Part shown: positions 25,882-40,172 of the stretch, piece by piece
Position numbering within the stretch: the stretch's first letter is position 1
Layout of the letters: each line of letters starts with the position of its first letter
NCBI GenBank assembly: GCA_965242525.1
Contig: OZ251459.1
Coordinates: 1,312,001-1,376,000, forward strand
Direction: 5' to 3'
Length of the DNA: 64,000 nt
Origin: an uncultured Candidatus Binatia bacterium
Lineage (GTDB): Bacteria; Desulfobacterota; Binatia; UBA9968; JAJDTQ01
The notes under the pieces: model-generated
The model's input: the letters and a program-made list of their open reading frames with translations, nothing else
The model's database searches: none
What the model was told of the DNA's origin: nothing
Position numbers and translations under genes: made by a program

Positions 25882-28800
25882 ATGAACAACCACGTGTCCA
25901 TCCACGGGGCGCTGCAAGACTTGGCCGCTGCGGTGACGGAGAAGACGACGCAACCCACCGCGGGGGAGCCCGAAGACCAGCTCCGCGCCCCGTTCGAAAC
26001 CTTCATGGCGGACGTCGCCGCGGCCTTGGGCCGGCGCGTCACCTGCACCGGCGAGACGCCGCTGCCGGACCGGCTCGGCCGGCCCGACTACGCGGTTCAC
26101 GGCAACGGCCTGCTCGTCGGCTACGTGGAGATCAAGGCCCCGGGCACGGGCGCTGACGCAGCCCGTTTCAAGGGCCGCAACCGCCAACAGTTCCAGCGCT
26201 TTTCGGCGATCCCCAACCTCCTCTACACCGACGGCAACCAATGGGCGCTGTACCGGGGCGGCGAACGGGCGGGAGGCGTGGTCCGGCTTTCGGGGGATGT
26301 GGCCCGTGACGGCCGGCACGCCGCGGCGGTGGAGGACGCTCCCGGCGTCGAGCGCCTGGTGCGGGACTTCCTGTCGTGGGAGCCGCTCCTGCCCCTGGAC
26401 GGCAAGGGCCGCATGGACCTCCGGCGCTTCGCCGACCTGCTGGCCCCCCTGTGCCGGATGCTGCGGGACGACGTGGCCGACGCCCTCGCCGACCCGGCCT
26501 CCCCTCTCGTTCACTTGGCCGGGGACTGGCGGCAACTGCTGTTCCCTCACGCCTCGGACGTCCAGTTCGCCGACGCCTACGCCCAGACCGTCGCCTTCGC
26601 CCTGCTGCTGGGGCGCAGCGAGGGGGCGGACCCGTTGACGCTGGAAGGGGCCCAGGCCGCCCTCGCCGCACAGCACGGCCTGCTCTCCCGCGCCCTGCAA
26701 GTCCTGACCGACCCGGGCGTGCGGGCGGAGATGAGCGCGTCCCTGGACCTGCTGCTGCGGGTCCTCGCAGTCGTGCCGCCCGCGGCGCTGGCCGGACCGC
26801 AGGACCCGTGGCTCTACTTCTACGAAGACTTCCTGGCGGCCTACGACCCCAAGCTGCGCAAGGACGCCGGGGCCTACTACACTCCGGTGGAAGTGGTCCG
26901 CGCTCAGGTGCGTCTGGTGGACGACCTGCTGGTCCATCGCCTGAACAGACGGCTGGGCTTTACGGAACCCGGCGTGGTCACGCTGGATCCGGCTGCAGGC
27001 ACGGGCACGTACCTGCTGGGGGTGGTCGAACACGCCCTGGGGCGGGTGGAAGCGGAACAGGGGACGGGCGCGGTGGCGGGACAAGCCGCGGAGTTGGCCA
27101 ACAACCTCTACGGCTTCGAATTGATGGCGGGGCCGTATGCGGTGAGCGAGTTGCGCGTCAGCCGCGCCTTGCGCGACCGGGGGGCATCGTCGGCCGACGC
27201 GGCGCGGGTCTATCTGACCGACACCCTGGAGAGCCCCCACGCGGAGCCGCCGCAACTGCCGCTGTTCCTCCGGCCCATCTCGGAGCAGCGCCGCAAGGCG
27301 CTTGCAGTGAAGCGTGAGACGCCGGTGCTGGTGTGTATCGGCAACCCGCCCTACGACCGGCACGAGGCCGCCACCCCGCACAACGGGGACCACACCGGCT
27401 CCTGGGTGCGATGGGGCGAGAACGGGGCGCTGCCGGCAAAGGCTTCTTCCTCGCGCGCCGCGGGCGCGGACGCCATCTTCCGGGACTTCCTCGATCCGGT
27501 GGTGGCAGCGGGCCGCGGCGTCCACCTCAAGAACCTGTACAACCTCTACGTCTATTTCTGGCGCTGGGCGCTGTGGAAGGTGTTCGAGCACGACACCGCC
27601 CGCGGGCCGGGCGTGGTGAGCTTCATCACCGCGTCGAGCTACCTCGACGGCGACGCCTTCCGGGGCATGCGCGAACACATGCGGCGGGTGTGCGATGAAG
27701 TGTGGATCCTGGACTTGGGCGGCGAGGGCCGTGGCACGCGCAAGAGCGACAACGTCTTCGCCATCCAGACGCCGGTGGCCATTGCGGTTGCGGCGCGCAC
27801 GGGCAAGGCGAAGGAGGACGAGCCCGCGAAGGTCCGCTACGCGCGCATCGACGGCACGCGCAGACAGAAGCTGGCTGCCCTCGACGCCATCGACGGTTTC
27901 CGGAAGGTGGCTTGGCAGGACTGCCCCAACGAGTGGCAGGCGGCGTTCCGTCCCGCGGGCAAAGGGGATTACTTCGCTTGGCCGCTGCTCACCGACCTGA
28001 TGCCGTGGCAGCATTCGGGCGTCCAGTTGAAACGCACTTGGCCCATCGCGCCGGATGCGGACACGCTGGAACGCCGTTGGCGAGCGCTGCTCGCAGCTTC
28101 GGGCGCGAACCGGACCGCGGCGTTCAGGGAAACACGCGACCGCAAGGTCTCGTCGGAATGCCCCCCGCTGTTATCGGGAGACGAGACGACGCCTATCGCC
28201 AGCCTGGGCCGTGACGCACCGACCCCGCGCATGGAACGCTATGCCTACCGGTCGTTCGACCGGCAGCGCCTCTTTCTGGATACGCGGCTGGCAGATTACC
28301 TGCGCCCCGCGCTGTGGCGCGCCCATGGCGAACGGCAAGTTTACGTGACCAGCCTCCTCAGCCAAGTCCTCGGCAACGGCCCGGCGCTCACCGCCTGTGC
28401 GCTGCTTCCCGACCTTCATCATTTCCCCGGCGGAAGCGGAAAGAGCATCGTTCCTCTCTACCGGACCGCAGACGCTTCGGAGGCCAACCTCCTGCCCGGC
28501 CTACAGGACCTCCTCGGCAAGACCCTTGGGCGCAAGGTCACTCCCGAACACTTCCTGGCCTACGTCTATGGCGTGCTGGCCCACCCGGCCTTTACGGCGC
28601 GGTTTTCCGAGGAACTGGAAACGCGCGATCTGCGGGTCCCGCTCACCAGGGACGCCGGGTTGTTCGAGCGGGTCCGCAGGACGGGCGCCCGCCTGTTGCG
28701 GTTGCACACCTACGGCGAACGCTTCGCCGGCGGGAGGCAACGCGGCCGGGTTCCCCGCGGCGCGGCCCGATGCGTCAGGGCCGTGCCCGGCGACCCTGCC

Positions 28801-29196
28801 AGCTATCCCGAAGCGTTCCGCTACGACGACGCGACACAGACGCTTCACGTGGGCGCGGGCGAGTTCGCGCCAGTCACGCCCGAGGTCCATGGGTTCGAGG
28901 TCTCCGGCCTCAAGGTGGTCCAATCCTGGCTCAAGTACCGCATGAAGGACCGGGGCGGCAAGAAGTCCTCGCCCCTGGACGCCATCCGCCCGGAGCGATG
29001 GACGCCGGGGTTCACCACCGAATTGCTGGAGTTGCTCTGGGTGCTGGAGGCCACCCTCGATAGCTACCCGGAACAGGCGCGCCTGCTCGACGCGGTGGTC
29101 GAAGGCCCCTGCTTCCGGGCCGACGAGTCGCCGCCCGTCCACGAGGCCATGAGGAAGCCGCCGGGCTCGGCCGAGGTTCCGGAGAGGCTGCTCTGA
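25882..29196 (+). CDS. Single-chain restriction-modification enzyme, type ISP-related without helicase (nuclease + N6-adenine MTase + ISP-type specificity domain)
   Basis: RPD...VEIK (PD-(D/E)XK), GAYYTP, LDPAAGTG (motif I), GNPPY (motif IV), YRSFDRQ and VVQSWLKYR. Confidence 0.85.
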   Translation: MNNHVSIHGALQDLAAAVTEKTTQPTAGEPEDQLRAPFETFMADVAAALGRRVTCTGETPLPDRLGRPDYAVHGNGLLVGYVEIKAPGTGADAARFKGRNRQQFQRFSAIPNLLYTDGNQWALYRGGERAGGVVRLSGDVARDGRHAAAVEDAPGVERLVRDFLSWEPLLPLDGKGRMDLRRFADLLAPLCRMLRDDVADALADPASPLVHLAGDWRQLLFPHASDVQFADAYAQTVAFALLLGRSEGADPLTLEGAQAALAAQHGLLSRALQVLTDPGVRAEMSASLDLLLRVLAVVPPAALAGPQDPWLYFYEDFLAAYDPKLRKDAGAYYTPVEVVRAQVRLVDDLLVHRLNRRLGFTEPGVVTLDPAAGTGTYLLGVVEHALGRVEAEQGTGAVAGQAAELANNLYGFELMAGPYAVSELRVSRALRDRGASSADAARVYLTDTLESPHAEPPQLPLFLRPISEQRRKALAVKRETPVLVCIGNPPYDRHEAATPHNGDHTGSWVRWGENGALPAKASSSRAAGADAIFRDFLDPVVAAGRGVHLKNLYNLYVYFWRWALWKVFEHDTARGPGVVSFITASSYLDGDAFRGMREHMRRVCDEVWILDLGGEGRGTRKSDNVFAIQTPVAIAVAARTGKAKEDEPAKVRYARIDGTRRQKLAALDAIDGFRKVAWQDCPNEWQAAFRPAGKGDYFAWPLLTDLMPWQHSGVQLKRTWPIAPDADTLERRWRALLAASGANRTAAFRETRDRKVSSECPPLLSGDETTPIASLGRDAPTPRMERYAYRSFDRQRLFLDTRLADYLRPALWRAHGERQVYVTSLLSQVLGNGPALTACALLPDLHHFPGGSGKSIVPLYRTADASEANLLPGLQDLLGKTLGRKVTPEHFLAYVYGVLAHPAFTARFSEELETRDLRVPLTRDAGLFERVRRTGARLLRLHTYGERFAGGRQRGRVPRGAARCVRAVPGDPASYPEAFRYDDATQTLHVGAGEFAPVTPEVHGFEVSGLKVVQSWLKYRMKDRGGKKSSPLDAIRPERWTPGFTTELLELLWVLEATLDSYPEQARLLDAVVEGPCFRADESPPVHEAMRKPPGSAEVPERLL

Positions 29197-35081: not shown

Positions 35082-35954
35082 TCAGAGCCCCAGCATGGCC
35101 CTGGGGTTGTCCACGATCAGCTTCTCCACGTTCCGGGGCGAGACCCCCTTCTCGTAGAGCCCCTGGGCGTAGAGCCACAGGGCCTCGGGGGGCAGCGGGT
35201 TGTGGGACTGGCCGGTGTCGCTCATGACCACGCAGTTGTCGAACCCCATGGAGTCCATGATCCCCTTGGTGAACTCCAGGTTGACGTAGGCCCACATGGG
35301 CGAGATGGTGCAGTAGCCGAACTCGCCGATGGCGCCGTAGCGCATCATCTGCTTCAGGAAGTCCAGGTTCATGCCCGCGGGCACGCGGAAATAGGGATGG
35401 GTGATGAGGATCTTCTTCACCCCCCGCTCGTGGGCCGCCTTCACCAGCAGCTCGATCTCCCCCAGGGAGAGGTGGGCGGTCCCCAGGATGGCGTCGTACT
35501 TGGCGACGAGCTCCAGCACCACCATGGCCTCCTCCACCACCTTGCCGTCCCTGACCGCGGAGATGGGCTCGCCCCAGACGAAGTCCGCCCCGCTACTCTG
35601 GGTGTCGTAGCTGCCCCTGGCCCCGTGGACCTCCACGTGGTGGGCGGCGTCGATGGTCGGCATCCAGATCTCCTTGGCGCCCAGCCGGAGGCCCACCTCG
35701 GCCGCGGCCGGGTTGATGCCGCCCACGAACTGGTTCATCACCACGCCGCCGAACACCTTGATGTCGGGGAAGTCCTTCTGGATGAGGTAGGCCCGGCTCA
35801 CCGTGCTTTCGTGGTGGCACTTCAGCACGATGGCGGCCATGCCCGCGTCCGACGCGGCCTGCACCGCCTGGCGGTCGTCCACCCGCCGCTGGAAGACGCA
35901 GGGATACGAATGCACGTGCAGGTCCACGGCCCCGTCGAGTTTCATGAATTCCAT
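35082..35954 (-). CDS. Amidohydrolase/PHP-like metalloprotein (DUF6282-like)
   Basis: DLHVH, VLKCHH, GGIN, WMPT, TAH, THP, SDTGQ and NP motifs. Start is ATG at 35954. Confidence 0.8.
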   Translation of the reverse strand: MEFMKLDGAVDLHVHSYPCVFQRRVDDRQAVQAASDAGMAAIVLKCHHESTVSRAYLIQKDFPDIKVFGGVVMNQFVGGINPAAAEVGLRLGAKEIWMPTIDAAHHVEVHGARGSYDTQSSGADFVWGEPISAVRDGKVVEEAMVVLELVAKYDAILGTAHLSLGEIELLVKAAHERGVKKILITHPYFRVPAGMNLDFLKQMMRYGAIGEFGYCTISPMWAYVNLEFTKGIMDSMGFDNCVVMSDTGQSHNPLPPEALWLYAQGLYEKGVSPRNVEKLIVDNPRAMLGL

Positions 35955-36083
35955 AACGTCCCGTCCAGGCGCCCGCCCGGGGCGCGGTTGCGATCCTCGA
36001 TTTCGTCCATCCCCGGAGACTCCGACCCTGCTCCGCCATCCGAACGCCGAGGACCTGAGAAGCGTCGAGCCATTGCAGCATGG

Positions 36084-36112
36084 AACATAACACTTGACGG
36101 GCAGGACCGGAA
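36084..36112 (-). promoter_or_regulatory. Possible extended -10 promoter of the DUF6282 operon
   Basis: TTCCGG-N17-TATGTT with TG extension (TGtTATGTT). Confidence 0.3.
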
Positions 36113-36180
36113 GGCGGCGACGCAGGCCCCGGGCGGCTCGATCCTTCCGGCTGCCCACCGGCAAGGAGGCTCGGGCCACG

Positions 36181-36275
36181 ACGACTCTTTCGACCGGAGT
36201 CGAAAGTGGCTGCGACTTTTTTTGACCGTAGTCAAAAGTAGCCGCGACTTTTTTTGACTACGGTAGAAATTAGCT
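36181..36275. repeat. Three tandem ~32-bp units, each with a TTTTGAC-N4-GTCAAAA-type palindrome (operator-like)
   Basis: CTTTCGAC-CGGA-GTCGAAAG, TTTTGAC-CGTA-GTCAAAA and TTTTGAC-TACG-GTAGAAA, with centres exactly 32 bp apart. Confidence 0.85.
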
Positions 36276-36288: not shown

Positions 36289-37407
36289 ATGGCAGAGACG
36301 CCCCGCTACCTCTCCGGACAGGTCCTGTCCGACCTCCGCCGCAAGATGGTGTTCGTGGCGGGCCCCCGACAGGTGGGCAAGACCACCTTCGCGCGGAGCC
36401 TGCCCGGCGCCCCGGAGGGTTACCTCAACTGGGACGTGGCCGCGCACCGGCATCGCATCCTGCGGCGCGAACTGCCCCCGTCCGGCCTCTGGGTCTTCGA
36501 CGAGATCCACAAATACCGCCAGTGGCGCGGCTACCTCAAGGGCTTGTACGACGACCGCGGGGAGGGCCAACGGATCCTCGTGACCGGCAGCGGCCGGCTC
36601 GACCTCTACAGGTTCGGCGGCGACGCCCTGCAGGGGCGCTACCACCTGCTGCGGCTGCATCCCTTCTCCGTGGCCGAAGCGGGCGTGGGCACGCCCGCGG
36701 AGCTGCGCGACCTGCTGGAGCTCGGCGGCTTTCCCGAGCCCTGGCTGTCGGGCAGCCGCCGGGAAGCAAGGCGCTGGTCCCGGGAGTACCGGGCCCGGCT
36801 CGTGCGCGAGGAAGCGGCCACCCTCGAGCAGGTCCGGGACCTCGGCCAGTTGGAGCTGATGATGCTGGCCCTGCCCGAGAGGGTGGGCGCGCCGCTTTCC
36901 GTCAACGCCCTGCGCGAGGACTTGCAGGTGAGCCACAAGACCGCGGACGCCTGGCTCGGCGCCCTGGAGCGGCTGTACGCCATCTTCCGGCTGCCGCCGT
37001 TCGGCTCGCCCCGCCTGCGCGCGGTCAAGAAGCAGTGCAAGCACTACCACTTCGACTGGACCCTGGCGCCCGAAGACGGGGCGCGTTTCGAGAACCTCAC
37101 CGCCTGCCACCTGCTCAAGTGGGTCCACCACCAACAGGACACCGAGGGGTTGGACCTGGAGTTGCGCTACTTCCGCGACAAGGACGGCCGGGAAGTCGAT
37201 TTCGTCGTCGAGCAGCGGAGAACCCCGTCGCTGCTGGTCGAATGCAAGTGGTCCGACGCCCCTCCGGACCGAGGCCTCAAGTACCTGAAGGCAAGGTTCC
37301 CCAAGGCCGAGGCATGGCAGGTCTCCGCCATCGGCGTGAAGGACTACGTAACCCCGGAAGGAATCCGCGTAGCCCCCGCACTGGCGCTGTTGTCCGGGCT
37401 GGCGTAG
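36289..37407 (+). CDS. AAA_14 + DUF4143 ATPase with C-terminal PD-(D/E)XK-like motif
   Basis: GPRQVGKTT, FDEIHK, VTGSG, GGFPE, FENL and YFRDKDGREVDFVV...LVECK. Confidence 0.9.
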   Translation: MAETPRYLSGQVLSDLRRKMVFVAGPRQVGKTTFARSLPGAPEGYLNWDVAAHRHRILRRELPPSGLWVFDEIHKYRQWRGYLKGLYDDRGEGQRILVTGSGRLDLYRFGGDALQGRYHLLRLHPFSVAEAGVGTPAELRDLLELGGFPEPWLSGSRREARRWSREYRARLVREEAATLEQVRDLGQLELMMLALPERVGAPLSVNALREDLQVSHKTADAWLGALERLYAIFRLPPFGSPRLRAVKKQCKHYHFDWTLAPEDGARFENLTACHLLKWVHHQQDTEGLDLELRYFRDKDGREVDFVVEQRRTPSLLVECKWSDAPPDRGLKYLKARFPKAEAWQVSAIGVKDYVTPEGIRVAPALALLSGLA

Positions 37408-37557
37408 GGACCGTCCCCGCGTAAGCGGAGAAGCCAGGCTCACCTGGTTCGCCTGCTATTGCTGGTGCGGATCGTCCCCGCGTAAGCGGAGAAGCCCCGG
37501 GCGGCGCCGCGGACATGGACCCTGGTTGCGGATTGGCCCTGCGTAAGCGGAGAAGCC
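37407..37557 (-). CRISPR. Orphan type I-E-like mini CRISPR array: three 29-bp repeats, two 32-bp spacers
   Basis: Repeats at 37407-37435, 37468-37496 and 37529-37557 (period 61). Minus-strand consensus GGCTTCTCCGCTTACGCGGGGACGATCCG has a 7-bp stem and TTAC loop. Spacers are unrelated to each other. No cas genes in the window. Confidence 0.75.
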
Positions 37558-37605
37558 GGTAGCGGGCAACGGCGCTTGCCGTCGTTCCCGCAAAAAACCC
37601 CGCAC

Positions 37606-37634
37606 CGTCATTCCCGCGAAAGCGGGAATCCACT
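37606..37634 (+). repeat. REP-like (dRS3-like) palindrome
   Basis: CGTCATTCCCGCGAAAGCGGGAATCCACT, the exact reverse complement of 39216-39244. Confidence 0.85.
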
Positions 37635-37685
37635 TTGGTCTCGTTGTATGAACCTCTCCGGGTTGGATACTCTTCTCGATCCATT

Positions 37686-37748
37686 TTCCCTCACCCTGAC
37701 CCCCATACCCGTTCGTCCTGAGCGTAGCGAAGCGGAGTCGAAGGACGC
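37686..37748 (+). repeat. Repeat family B copy
   Basis: 63 bp with 3 mismatches to the reverse complement of 39023-39085. Confidence 0.85.
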
Positions 37749-37840
37749 GCTCTAGCGCCTATGGGGTTGGGGCAGGGCTTCCGTGCAAGCCGATCCACTC
37801 AAAAGCCGGAAGAGCCGAGGATAGCAGGCATGGGCAGGCG

Positions 37841-39016
37841 TCAGGAGGTTTGCAGGTCGTCAAGCACTTTGGCGAGCCTTGCCGCCAATGTCTCTACATG
37901 CGTCGCCACGTCATGGTGCGCGATTAACCGAGCCCTCACTGTGTCAGGGCGACGGTGCTGCTCGCCGAAAGGATCATTTTCGAACTGGCTGACCCAATCA
38001 TCCAGGATCTTCAGGCGCTTGGGATGAAGCAGCGAGGCGTAGGCAGGGGAGTCCTTGGATGCGCTTTCTCCGAATGCGTAATCGCGCAACCCCATCCAGA
38101 AAGGGCTGTCGGAAGGCGGGTAGAACCAGGCCACTGTGATGAGCCAAGGATAGCTCTCTTCAGGAGGTTTCACCCTGATAGAGAAGCCTTTATCACCTGG
38201 TACGACTTTGGCTCCATGCTCCTCGGCGATCCCAAAGAGCCGTTGGGTTGCACGACGCACCTCATCACCGGGCAAGTTGTCCAAGAAGGAGTTGCGGTCG
38301 ATCTTCGTGCGCTTGTGGGACCCGTCACGCTTGCTCGGCGAGGCCGCCGTGTGTCCAATGACGCGAGGCACGAGCGTGCTGCGCGCCTCGGACTCGCCTT
38401 TGAACTGCTTGACCTCGACGGCCAGCACCTCGATGTTGTCACGCAGTTGCGCGTTCAGGAACTCGACGATGCGGGCGAGTTCAGTGGGTATGGCGTCTGC
38501 CACGAACAGCAAGCGCAGGCGTTTGGCGTCGAGGTTCCTGGCGACTTTGCGCCAAAACGCCTCTGCGTCCAGTTCTTCGTCCTCGGGCTGGAGCAGGTCT
38601 TGCAGCGCCTTGTCTGTGGCTGCGGAATCTCCCCAAGTCTTCTCGAAGGACTGGCGCAAGGTTTCCGGTGTCCAGAACTGCGAGGCGTTTGCGGCATAGT
38701 CCAGCATCTGGCCGACGACCTCACGCCGTATCTGTGTGTTCGAACCCCGCTTCACCTCGACGAGCGTCGGCACGGCGTCCTGGTCAACGAACAGGTGGTC
38801 CAGCGACCAGCGGTCGGACTCGCCGGACGCGGCCGGTACGCCCATCTCGCGCTTGACGAGCAGCCATCGCCGGGGGTTGCCCGGACTCATTTGTTCTCCG
38901 TCCAGCAAATGGGGGTACTCGGCAAGGAGTTTCTGCATGTGGTCTTCCGACTCGAACCGCTGTTCTTCCATCGACTCCAGGTTGTCCCCATCCAGGATGT
39001 AGATGCGTTCGGCCAT
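37841..39016 (-). CDS. PD-(D/E)XK (NucS/DUF91-like) nuclease-domain protein with unknown C-terminal region
   Basis: E..MQ.LL..YP.LL...LLVKRE...LDHLFVD...LVEVKR...GQMLDYA. Visibly more AT-rich than its neighbours. Confidence 0.75.
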   Translation of the reverse strand: MAERIYILDGDNLESMEEQRFESEDHMQKLLAEYPHLLDGEQMSPGNPRRWLLVKREMGVPAASGESDRWSLDHLFVDQDAVPTLVEVKRGSNTQIRREVVGQMLDYAANASQFWTPETLRQSFEKTWGDSAATDKALQDLLQPEDEELDAEAFWRKVARNLDAKRLRLLFVADAIPTELARIVEFLNAQLRDNIEVLAVEVKQFKGESEARSTLVPRVIGHTAASPSKRDGSHKRTKIDRNSFLDNLPGDEVRRATQRLFGIAEEHGAKVVPGDKGFSIRVKPPEESYPWLITVAWFYPPSDSPFWMGLRDYAFGESASKDSPAYASLLHPKRLKILDDWVSQFENDPFGEQHRRPDTVRARLIAHHDVATHVETLAARLAKVLDDLQTS

Positions 39017-39022
39017 GTTCTT

Positions 39023-39120
39023 GCGCCCTTCGACTCCGCTGCGCTACGCTCAGGACGAACGGGGATGGGGGTCAGGGTGAGGGAATCCACCCTCCATGTC
39101 TCGATTGTCCGGATGTTCCT
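39023..39120 (-). repeat. Repeat family B copy ending 6 nt upstream of the nuclease ATG
   Basis: Reverse-complement match to 37686-37748 and 32629-32779. Confidence 0.85.
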
Positions 39121-39215
39121 GCCGTTTCATACCCGCTCCCTCCTTCGTGCCCACTTTCTTGTTGGACAATACCCCCTTGTCCTCCTGGAACAGGGAATAA
39201 ACCAGATGTTCCCCA

Positions 39216-39244
39216 AGTGGATTCCCGCTTTCGCGGGAATGACG
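39216..39244 (-). repeat. REP-like (dRS3-like) palindrome, inverted copy
   Basis: AGTGGATTCCCGCTTTCGCGGGAATGACG. Confidence 0.85.
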
Positions 39245-39300
39245 AGGTGGGCTTTCGCAGGAACGACGGCAAGCACAGTGGATTCCCGTTGCCCGCTACC

Positions 39301-39329
39301 GGCTTCCCTGCTTACGCGGGGATAAGCTC
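39301..39329 (+). CRISPR. Isolated type I-E-like repeat in opposite orientation (possible degenerate second repeat near 39361-39386)
   Basis: GGCTTCCCTGCTTACGCGGGGATAAGCTC, preceded by the same 15 nt (CCGTTGCCCGCTACC) that precede the 37529-37557 repeat on the minus strand. Confidence 0.55.
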
Positions 39330-39467
39330 GCGGGCACGAGCTGCGCGGCGCCTGCCTCCCGGCTTACTGCCTGCCGGGGCAGGCTCCGCAGGCGCGGTGG
39401 AACGACGGCTTGACCCCTGCCGCTCCCCTTTCCCCCCTGCCTCACCCACACGAAACCCGGAAGCGCC

Positions 39468-40172
39468 CTATCCTCCGGGATGGGCCGCGGCTTCGGCCGG
39501 TTCCAGGTCGAGGGCGCGGCTCACGGCTTCCAGGGCGGCCTGGTTGCTGGTGACCACGGGCAGGTCGTAGGCCTGGCGCAGTTGCGGCAGGGTCGCCACC
39601 GCCTGGTAGTTGGTGCAGGAGATGAACAGGGCGTCCACCTGCGGGCGGGGGCCCAGCTTCTCCCGGGCGAAGGCCAGGATCTCCCGCGGCTCCACCAGCG
39701 CCAAGTTGAAGTTGACGCTGATGCCCATGCCGTGGATGGACGCCACCTCGATGCCGTCGTCCTCCACGCTGGCCTTGATGCGGACGTTGAGTTCCTCGAT
39801 GTAGGGGGTCAGCACCGCGATGCGCCGCGCCTCCAGGACCGCCAGCATGCTCCGCACCGACTCGATGACGCTGACGGTGGGCTTGCCGGTGACTTCGGAT
39901 ATCCGGCGGCACAGTTCCGCGTCGTAGGCGTTGCCGCGCAGCGCCCCGGCGCTGGTGCAGCCGAACACCACCACGTCCGGCCGGGCGGTGGCCACGTCCC
40001 TGGCCGCGGGGAGCGTGTGCCGGTCCAGCATGGCCTCCTCGCCCTCGACGGTGGTGGCTTCCATGTACATGCGCCCGGTGTGGACCGTGGCCGCCGGCGG
40101 CAGGCAGCGGTAGAAGTCCACCTCCATGACCGTGTTGGAGGAAGGGATGAGCAGTCCGACCCGATGACCCAA
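39468..40172 (-). CDS. Maleate cis-trans isomerase/Asp-Glu racemase family protein
   Basis: GLLIPSSNTVME, FGCTS, LTPY, ISCTN and TSNQA, with both catalytic Cys present. Confidence 0.88.
   Translation of the reverse strand: MGHRVGLLIPSSNTVMEVDFYRCLPPAATVHTGRMYMEATTVEGEEAMLDRHTLPAARDVATARPDVVVFGCTSAGALRGNAYDAELCRRISEVTGKPTVSVIESVRSMLAVLEARRIAVLTPYIEELNVRIKASVEDDGIEVASIHGMGISVNFNLALVEPREILAFAREKLGPRPQVDALFISCTNYQAVATLPQLRQAYDLPVVTSNQAALEAVSRALDLEPAEAAAHPGG

Follow-up and report, generated by a model that had tools for sequence, protein, structure and literature searches.

A cas-less mini CRISPR array, probably a type I-E relic with a self-matching spacer, in an uncultured Candidatus Binatia bacterium

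Introduction

Three short direct repeats separated by two unique spacers are located next to an ATPase gene in a 64,000-nt stretch of DNA from an uncultured Candidatus Binatia bacterium (assembly GCA_965242525.1, contig OZ251459.1, positions 1,312,001 to 1,376,000 of the forward strand), hereafter the window. The arrangement is that of a minute CRISPR array, and CRISPR-associated (cas) genes are missing in its neighborhood. What, then, is this structure: a decayed orphan array, a regulatory element served by a distant Cascade, or a group of ordinary hairpins with CRISPR-like spacing? We conclude that it is probably a genuine but decayed cas-less array of type I-E in a small variable defence islet, and that its spacer S1 probably records an event of self-targeting. 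Coordinates refer to the window unless prefixed by C1, which denotes the contig. The host assembly comprises 4.23 Mb in 7 contigs with a GC content of 67% and is 98.96% complete.

Architecture of the array

The three direct copies of a 29-nt repeat occupy positions 37407-37435 (R1), 37468-37496 (R2) and 37529-37557 (R3), all read on the minus strand as explained below. The distance from start to start is 61 nt in both instances. The repeats are separated by two 32-nt spacers, S1 (37436-37467) and S2 (37497-37528), which bear no likeness to each other. Up to this point the original prediction is borne out: it had described three 29-bp repeats and two unique 32-bp spacers, and the coordinates, the 61-nt spacing and the spacer sequences are as it quoted them. 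Tandem Repeats Finder remained silent on the array, as expected with unique spacers; it reported only a 32-nt repeat 5' of the ATPase gene. When the entire genome was searched allowing up to 7 mismatches, the repeat appeared only in the three array copies and in one inverted degenerate copy at 39301-39329, the solo repeat R4. Because the repeat is restricted to this locus at such a permissive threshold, the array is not a chance structure.

The canonical orientation is the minus strand, because the arrays of relatives lie downstream of, and co-oriented with, Cas7e and the other cas genes. The array therefore runs toward the 3' end of the ATPase gene, as had been proposed, and the order is leader side, R3, S2, R2, S1, R1, ATPase stop. 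S2 is leader-proximal and therefore the younger spacer, S1 the older one. R2 is the best-kept copy; its minus-strand sequence is GGCTTCTCCGCTTACGCGGGGACGATCCG, from which the outer repeats R1 and R3 deviate by 2 and 3 mismatches, respectively. R2 is predicted to fold into a 7-bp stem with a UUAC loop (-12 kcal/mol, z = -2.6), followed by an 8-nt tail ACGATCCG. In the leader-proximal R3 the stem is broken (-7 kcal/mol, z = -0.6), and in R1, at the trailer end, the 3' handle is degenerate (GGTCCC, not GATCCG).

The junction of R1 with the ATPase gene deserves scrutiny. G37407 is the third base of the ATPase TAG stop codon and also the first base of R1, and to this extent the claim that the array starts in the stop codon is correct. 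The 1-nt overlap is nominal, however. Homology with the array-less ATPase locus of the closest species (G023) continues for about 6 nt past the stop codon, to about 37413. Because its last ~7 nt align with this post-stop sequence, R1 is probably a trailer-end repeat truncated by ~7 nt which abuts the stop. As a candidate modification of the unit we considered a repeat extending 6-7 nt into the spacers (CTGG(T)(T)G before each plus-strand copy); it was rejected as the X7 strain described below has not preserved the motif.

On the opposite side of the array, R3 is preceded by a 15-nt remnant of a leader-repeat junction (37558-37572, minus strand), identical to the 15 nt before R4. Beyond it, at 37573-37753, follow copies of repetitive extragenic palindromic (REP) sequences and miniature inverted-repeat transposable elements (MITE), represented by the hairpin CGTCATTCCCGCGAAAGCGGGAATCC and the element CCGTTCGTCCTGAGCGTAGCGAAGCGGAGTCGAAGGACG; depth spikes in the bins 37548-37755. 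The 120 nt on the leader side of R3 contain REP copies, have 58% GC and show no similarity to the leaders of nine relatives, which have 46-54% GC. The absence of an AT-rich leader had been noted before and stands. A scan of positions 37200-39500 for sigma-70-like promoters yielded no site. The original leader has been lost, with REP copies in its place.

Spacer S1 and its chromosomal counterpart

S1 is identical in 32 of 32 positions to C1:1391370-1391401 of the same genome. The distance to the array is 41.9 kb, and the site is about 15 kb past the end of the window. The statement that no long spacer match exists is thus true inside the window only. The next-best place for S1 in the genome has 8 mismatches, and six shuffled versions of S1 gave at least 9 mismatches or no match at up to 9. 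The identity between spacer and protospacer ends at the spacer borders. On the strand corresponding to the CRISPR RNA (crRNA) the base preceding the protospacer is a G, as is the last base of the repeat, and the position of the protospacer-adjacent motif (PAM) reads ACG.

The protospacer comprises codons close to the 3' end of a gene for a 270-aa BacA/UppP protein, undecaprenyl-diphosphatase (Pfam BacA, E = 1.1e-70). In crRNA sense, S1 is perfectly complementary to the bacA coding strand, i.e., antisense to the bacA mRNA. The gene is a single-copy core gene, present in 26 of 27 congeners with 73-89% nucleotide identity and in a conserved relative position. Of eleven loci of relatives examined, two gave truncated alignments and nine were fully compared; in these nine, 2-6 of the 32 positions of the bacA allele deviate from S1, and the allele of the closest sampled species is off at 2 of 32. 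Because the alleles of relatives differ in this way, S1 was taken from this lineage's own bacA allele. As a control, the 224 spacers of the relatives' I-E arrays were compared with this genome, and no full-length match was obtained. From these sequence relations we infer that S1 was excised by an I-E adaptation complex from the lineage's own uppP/bacA gene and records CRISPR self-targeting.

S2 presents a different picture, as it is without a target in all searches. Its best places in its own genome have at least 9 mismatches, which equals the shuffle level, and there was no match at up to 3 mismatches in 122 other genomes of the order. For the spacers, a phage collection returned 5 short matches with E of at least 2, and a plasmid collection 32 short matches with E of at least 0.1. 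Against viral contigs neither spacer matched when every sixth base was left free, nor did the first 22 nt of S2. The search against host and mobile elements, as originally suggested, was consequently rewarding for S1, with a match in bacA coding sequence rather than in a promoter, and yielded nothing for S2 and nothing in the phage, plasmid and viral sets. Nor do the spacers recur within a repeated element, as they would if the structure were part of a MITE; S1 recurs once, as uppP/bacA.

Assignment to type I-E

Cas7e is encoded in 10 of 27 congeneric genomes, this genome excluded. Eight of these loci were retrieved and six carry arrays, with 29-nt repeats, a 61-nt period and altogether 224 spacers of 32-34 nt. 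The repeats fall into two classes which are identical to each other in 21-22 of 29 positions. R2 is identical to one class (G005, G006) in 22 of 29 positions without gaps, i.e., at the same level as prevails between the two I-E repeat classes of the genus. Comparing 2000 shuffles of R2 with the I-E repeats gave a mean identity of 9.8 and a maximum of 19. Further, the hairpin of R2, whose 7-bp stem is closed by a 4-nt loop and followed by an 8-nt tail, is in the same register as that of the cas-linked I-E repeats of the genus. The 61-nt period, the stem and the 8-nt handle were initially called type I-E hallmarks; the comparison with cas-linked arrays of the genus substantiates this.

Since a 32-mer of a distant gene set exactly between two repeats is the product of Cas1-Cas2 integration, we regard the question as settled by the sequence in favour of a true CRISPR array and against a REP cluster.

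Cas genes in the genome

The genome has only two Cas1 genes; their positions, C1:434 kb and C1:753 kb, are about 900 and 600 kb distant from the array at C1:1349 kb. The two cas loci extend over C1:425-439 kb and 745-765 kb. One system is I-D-like (Cas6, Csc2, Cas3', Cas1 and Cas2) and has an array of 54 repeats of 28 nt each. This system is divergent: its matches are below several curated cut-offs, and a large subunit of 1016 aa has no family matches. The other, of type I-G (Csb1, Csb2, Cas3g, Cas4g/Cas1g and Cas2), has an array in which a 37-nt repeat occurs more than 140 times. Neither repeat is related to that of the mini-array.

A type I-E effector was not detected. Family models of Cas7e and Cas6e had no match in this genome, a search whose positive controls gave a signal in Thermus only. 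The stronger test is tblastn with the proteins of congeners: all open reading frames (ORFs) of at least 120 aa from the I-E loci of three congeners yielded only a weak Cas3 match, which falls onto the I-G cas3. A cognate I-E Cascade is thus absent from this assembly, which is 98.96% complete. Around the array, the 20 ORFs between 21 and 56 kb annotated with Pfam comprise housekeeping genes and one Type ISP restriction enzyme, and no cas gene. The view that no cas gene is nearby is hence confirmed. As to whether I-E cas genes exist in this genome or its relatives, on which the original prediction had made its reading dependent, the answer is divided: none here, Cas7e in more than a third of the congeners.

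The array in other strains

The stretch, or part of it, is contained in 20 public runs from 8 studies. Several are labelled sponge metagenome; among the 24 runs listed, no holder is recorded as RNA. For a comparison of strains we used contigs of four runs from four studies (X2, X3, X4 and X7), among the matches listed. In X2 and X3 the array is identical. In X4 (record 17) position 37407 is joined to 37469, and exactly 61 nt (37408-37468), corresponding to S1 and one repeat, are gone. In X7 (record 24) all three repeats are kept, and S1 is altered at both ends while its length is still 32 nt and a 20-nt core is intact. The alterations comprise 4 substitutions and a 2-nt insertion at 37463-37467, which in crRNA sense is the PAM-proximal seed, and single-base deletions at 37436 and 37442. 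The flanking 1.3 kb of X7 diverge by about 3%. X4 and X7 share a 10-nt insertion after 37571, which is also present in the inverted copy of this genome. Extra or new spacers were not seen in these contigs; small differences in S2 are possible. The strain pattern is one of loss and decay without acquisition, comparable to that of orphan arrays deemed non-functional in other bacteria (PMC5294841).

Other traces of I-E repeats exist in the genome. Three solitary I-E repeats, all on the plus strand, are positioned at C1:2437792-2437820, 2439580-2439608 and 2440777-2440805, 1.8 and 1.2 kb apart. They have 2-3 mismatches to the cas-linked class-2 repeat of G014 and G022. They are located in a 4.7-kb insertion of lower GC content between dnaB and thiE which lacks Pfam-recognisable genes, and the first of them begins 3 nt past the dnaB stop codon. 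The gap between dnaB and thiE is about 50-550 nt in most congeners; inserts of ~4.7-4.9 kb are also present in G023 and G005. The genome thus contains debris of two I-E repeat classes without an I-E cas gene, and such debris is not unique to the array locus.

The islet and its flanking genes

The array is part of a small islet. It is flanked by two minus-strand genes, one for a DUF6282 protein (35082-36179) and an Amdase gene (39468-40172). In each of the 6 relatives examined these two are neighbours; therefore the ~3.3 kb which separate them here are an insertion in this genome. The islet contains, in this order, the ATPase gene, the array, REP/MITE copies, a gene termed X, more REP copies, the solo repeat R4 and a further MITE copy.

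The ATPase, of the AAA_14/DUF4143 kind (372 aa; 36289-37407, plus strand; PF13173, 4.3e-20; PF13635, 2.2e-24), is convergent with the array and matches the PADLOC phage-defence candidate PDC-S01 (3.8e-45). Just 5' of its start codon, at 36188-36258, a 32-nt unit, TTTTGACCGGAGTCAAAAGTAGCCGCGACTTT, is tandemly repeated 2.2 times. The ATPase homologue of G023 likewise has a pair of similar units upstream, so the tandem repeat travels with the gene; it may be an operator or promoter element. Gene X (391 aa; 37841-39016, minus strand) is upstream of the array and co-oriented with it. Even at E = 10 it hits no Pfam family, and it matches the PADLOC candidate PDC-S11 (1.3e-12). Of 8000 scored candidates 7942 are homologues at E of 1e-5 or below, similar in length and mostly unnamed. 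An N-terminal D...EVK motif may be PD-(D/E)xK-like. The GC content at third codon positions (GC3) of gene X is 0.75, compared with about 0.9 in the neighbours. A further defence gene among otherwise housekeeping neighbours, a Type ISP restriction-modification enzyme (N6_Mtase and Type_ISP_C, 1104 aa; 25882-29196, plus strand), is located 8 kb upstream of the islet.

In G023 the homologues of the ATPase gene (92% nucleotide identity) and gene X (83%) are found elsewhere on the chromosome, in the same orientation and 82 nt apart, with no repeat between them. None of seven ATPase loci of relatives, G023 included, has the repeat at up to 9 mismatches. Relative to G023, gene X is inverted in the present genome. 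It is bracketed by inverted units, each consisting of repeat, junction and REP, at 37537-37638 and 39212-39321, which are 79% identical. Identity is 94% in the 32 nt across the boundary of repeat and junction, a sequence with no occurrence in the genome apart from R3 and R4. The second unit includes Leader-B (39212-39300, plus strand), in which the REP and junction sequence preceding R3 is repeated in inverted form. It is followed by R4, GGCTTCCCTGCTTACGCGGGGATAAGCTC (39301-39329), with 7 mismatches to R2, a predicted folding energy of -15.1 kcal/mol (z = -3.9) and its canonical orientation on the plus strand. After R4 comes a MITE copy, not another repeat, and 39344-39467 is repeated elsewhere in the genome. 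We read this as two homologous, outward-pointing leader-repeat junctions with a presumptive inversion between them. The duplication of the repeat-junction-REP unit could have originated from two arrays, from an inverted duplication or from a REP-mediated event.

The REP hairpin core is abundant, with 117 exact copies and about 285 partial matches in the genome. The core counted exactly, TTCCCGCGAAAGCGGGAA, often ends runs of a ~30-nt half-site repeat (GCGGGAATGACG plus ~19 nt). Such places are C1:1080700-1080838, 3430850-3430963 and 3770311-3770482 and, in the window, 37592-37635. The REP hairpin and the I-E repeats have a similar register, with 19-22 identities and one gap.

Interpretation

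How did an array without its own cas genes come to carry a fragment of a chromosomal core gene? Probably, as stated at the outset, it is what remains of a real I-E array. A I-E system, of the kind still present in congeners, would once have been active in this lineage or have been transferred into it. It would have acquired S1 from the host chromosome and S2 later. The ensuing self-targeting conflict would have ended with the I-E cas genes lost and the array in decay, although the order of events and the role of the conflict as a driver are reconstructed. Decay shows in a leader which REP/MITE copies have overrun, in mutations of the end repeats and in the inversion between duplicated leader-repeat units. 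Stern and colleagues reportedly proposed in 2010 a model in which self-targeting is followed by cas loss or array degeneration. Today the array is most likely inactive as an immune or Cascade-guided element. Neither the I-D-like nor the I-G system has a related repeat.

The original prediction had left two options, a decayed orphan array or a regulatory mini-array which uses a distant Cascade in the manner of CreA/CreR-like RNAs. The former is supported by the I-E kind of repeat, the missing I-E cas genes, the degenerate ends, the replaced leader and by strains which display only loss or decay. The latter is not upheld: there is no I-E Cascade in the genome, the resident repeats are unrelated, and the match of S1 is full, intragenic and not in a promoter.

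Several observations argue against our interpretation. R2 shares 22 identities, with one gap, also with the genome's own REP hairpin. A search of 60 relatives which tolerated up to 3 mismatches revealed no cas-linked array carrying the exact repeat. The 19-nt core of the repeat, searched in 185,579 species genomes, gave two single, chance-like matches in REP-like or ordinary hairpins, and in metagenome contigs four single matches in coding or terminator contexts. An Rfam 15 cmscan of 36900-38100 (E up to 10) reported no CRISPR-DR family, only mir-370 and cold-seep-1 at chance level; this null result is weak evidence as short models score weakly. No remnant of an I-E cas gene was found at or near the array locus, and the I-E loci of relatives have no synteny with it. 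Then there is the PAM. The consensus PAM of E. coli type I-E is AAG, with which the ACG flanking the S1 protospacer agrees only in the G at -1. Because of this flank S1 might have been unfit for interference from the start, and the loss of cas genes might have had a cause other than autoimmunity. A PAM for the genus could not be derived from the 224 spacers of relatives, which gave only chance matches of 17-20 nt and no full targets. Finally, S1 is older than S2, and therefore the I-E system outlived the acquisition of S1 for a time.

Four other explanations have to be weighed. That the locus is a pseudo-CRISPR, a local cluster of divergent REP-type hairpins with coincidental spacing, is extremely improbable. 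A k-mer chain scan does find 28 places with at least 3 copies at 45-95 nt, this array and the two cas-linked ones counted, the repeat has the mentioned likeness to the REP consensus, and solitary hairpins of such a kind occur by chance in other genomes. Yet the repeats are direct copies at equal 61-nt spacing with the length and register of the genus's I-E arrays, REP clusters elsewhere have a ~30-nt period and many genomic copies while the array repeat is unique to its locus, and above all S1, exactly delimited by repeats, reproduces part of a distant gene without change, a signature of Cas1-Cas2 and not of REP spread. Alternatively, the array, or a segment with gene X, might have been built in another strain or species whose I-E system had taken the spacer from this lineage's DNA, in a conflict between strains or upon uptake of DNA, and then recombined into a cas-less genome, where it would be harmless. 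The islet is mobile or variable, the GC3 of gene X is atypical, gene X has diverged further from G023 than the ATPase gene has, and the locus is devoid of I-E cas traces, all of which would suit an import. Since S1 equals this genome's own allele and already the closest species is off at two positions, the donor must have been a very close neighbour; the genomes and metagenome contigs searched yielded no donor array with this repeat. We therefore consider an import unlikely.

The two remaining explanations assign a present function to the array. In one, a minus-strand RNA, e.g., by read-through from gene X, would pair via S1 with the 3' end of the bacA mRNA and modulate its stability without Cas proteins. 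The complementarity over 32 nt is perfect, gene X is co-oriented and 283 nt upstream, all three matches of a terminator scan are outside the interval between gene X and the array, and a precedent exists in the glgP-antisense orphan crRNA of Aggregatibacter actinomycetemcomitans (PMC3484387). What renders such a role rather improbable is that S1 is not conserved, being deleted in X4 and altered at both ends in X7, that promoter-like sites are missing in 37200-39500 and that REP hairpins intervene between gene X and the array. In the other, the array would be usable with an I-E Cascade supplied in trans, by accessory cas genes in some strains or on a mobile element, the array serving such strains as immunity memory (S2) or as a CreA-like guide. 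The patchy occurrence of I-E in the genus (10 of 27 with Cas7e), the stable I-E-type hairpin of R2 and the persistence of the array in runs from several studies would permit this. It is nevertheless very unlikely: this genome has no I-E gene, the R3 stem is broken, the leader consists of REP copies without a promoter-like site, and no spacer was gained in the four runs. Were an I-E effector active, a perfect self-match in a core gene would cause harm instead of regulation, and, unlike CreA, the array has no evident toxin gene and its match is complete and intragenic.

Returning to the decayed I-E array, one may go a step further and view the locus as capturing three ways in which members of a sponge-associated bacterial population independently escaped from a single self-targeting event. 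I-E cas loss with S1 intact would be seen in this genome, X2 and X3, deletion of the S1 unit in X4, and scrambling of S1 including the PAM-proximal seed in X7. In its boldest version, the intact S1 would now act as a Cas-free antisense RNA against uppP/bacA, co-transcribed with the upstream defence gene. We put this forward as a doubtful extension only.

Orphan arrays, self-targeting spacers and their co-occurrence are already known, so the kind is not new. The case is unusually clean, with just two spacers, a cognate subtype absent here yet common in the genus, and a perfect match to a conserved cell-wall gene. Interest also derives from a strain polymorphism which resembles alternative escapes and from the setting in a tiny PDC-S01/PDC-S11 islet. 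Scans limited to a window misjudge such arrays, as here the decisive protospacer is 15 kb outside. The locus is a concrete one at which the model that autoimmunity leads to cas loss, or a Cas-free antisense use of a relic spacer, can be tested.

Comparison with known systems

The closest counterparts are the cas-linked I-E arrays of the congeners G005, G006, G011, G014 and G022. The 29-nt repeat, the 61-nt period, the 32-nt spacers, the hairpin positions and the 8-nt handle are the same, and R2 is identical to their repeats in 18-22 of 29 positions. Different from these, the present array is without I-E cas genes or an AT-richer leader, has two spacers only and degenerate end repeats. With the REP hairpins of its genome, or bacterial interspersed mosaic elements (BIME), it has in common a GC-rich hairpin with a 4-nt loop and physical adjacency. 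REP sequences, however, occur in more than 100 copies and in clusters with periods of ~30 nt, whereas the repeat of the array is confined to the locus, and its copies enclose a 32-mer derived from a gene.

CreA, whose ectopic repeats guide Cascade in the repression of a toxic RNA (PMC9458426, PMC8501985), resembles the array in having one or two spacer units between degenerate repeats outside a normal array. As described there, CreA requires its cognate Cascade and represses a toxin RNA gene, whereas here no cognate Cascade is present in the genome and the match is a full one in a coding region. An adjacent toxin is not evident, although creT-like small RNA genes are beyond the recognition of the tools used, and S2 has no match with fewer than 9 mismatches in the genome. 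The RliB-CRISPR of Listeria, a cas-less array processed by PNPase (PMC3886909), is likewise kept at a chromosomal locus without cas genes. RliB is reportedly conserved in the species at the same locus and expressed; the present array is absent in 27 of 27 congeners at up to 3 mismatches and varies between strains.

In Streptococcus pyogenes an isolated CRISPR without spacer turnover was judged a non-functional orphan (Zhang and Ye, 2017, PMC5294841). There, too, the repeat differs from those of the cas-linked arrays of the genome and the same spacers are found across strains. The array described here is much shorter, self-matching and situated in a REP-invaded, partly inverted islet. The nearest parallel to S1 comes from A. 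actinomycetemcomitans, in which a spacer is perfectly antisense over 35 nt to the 3' end of glgP and the orphan crRNA is an unprocessed RNA of ~650 nt on Northern blots (Jorth and Whiteley, 2012, PMC3484387). Both are small arrays which outlasted their cas genes, and in both one spacer is the antisense of a housekeeping gene's 3' end (35 nt of glgP in the one, 32 nt of uppP/bacA in the other). They differ in CRISPR type and in organism; expression was demonstrated for the glgP case, and in the present one related strains have lost or scrambled the self-matching spacer. By the tests applied, the locus is a type I-E array, and neither part of a functional I-E system nor a CreTA module nor a REP element.

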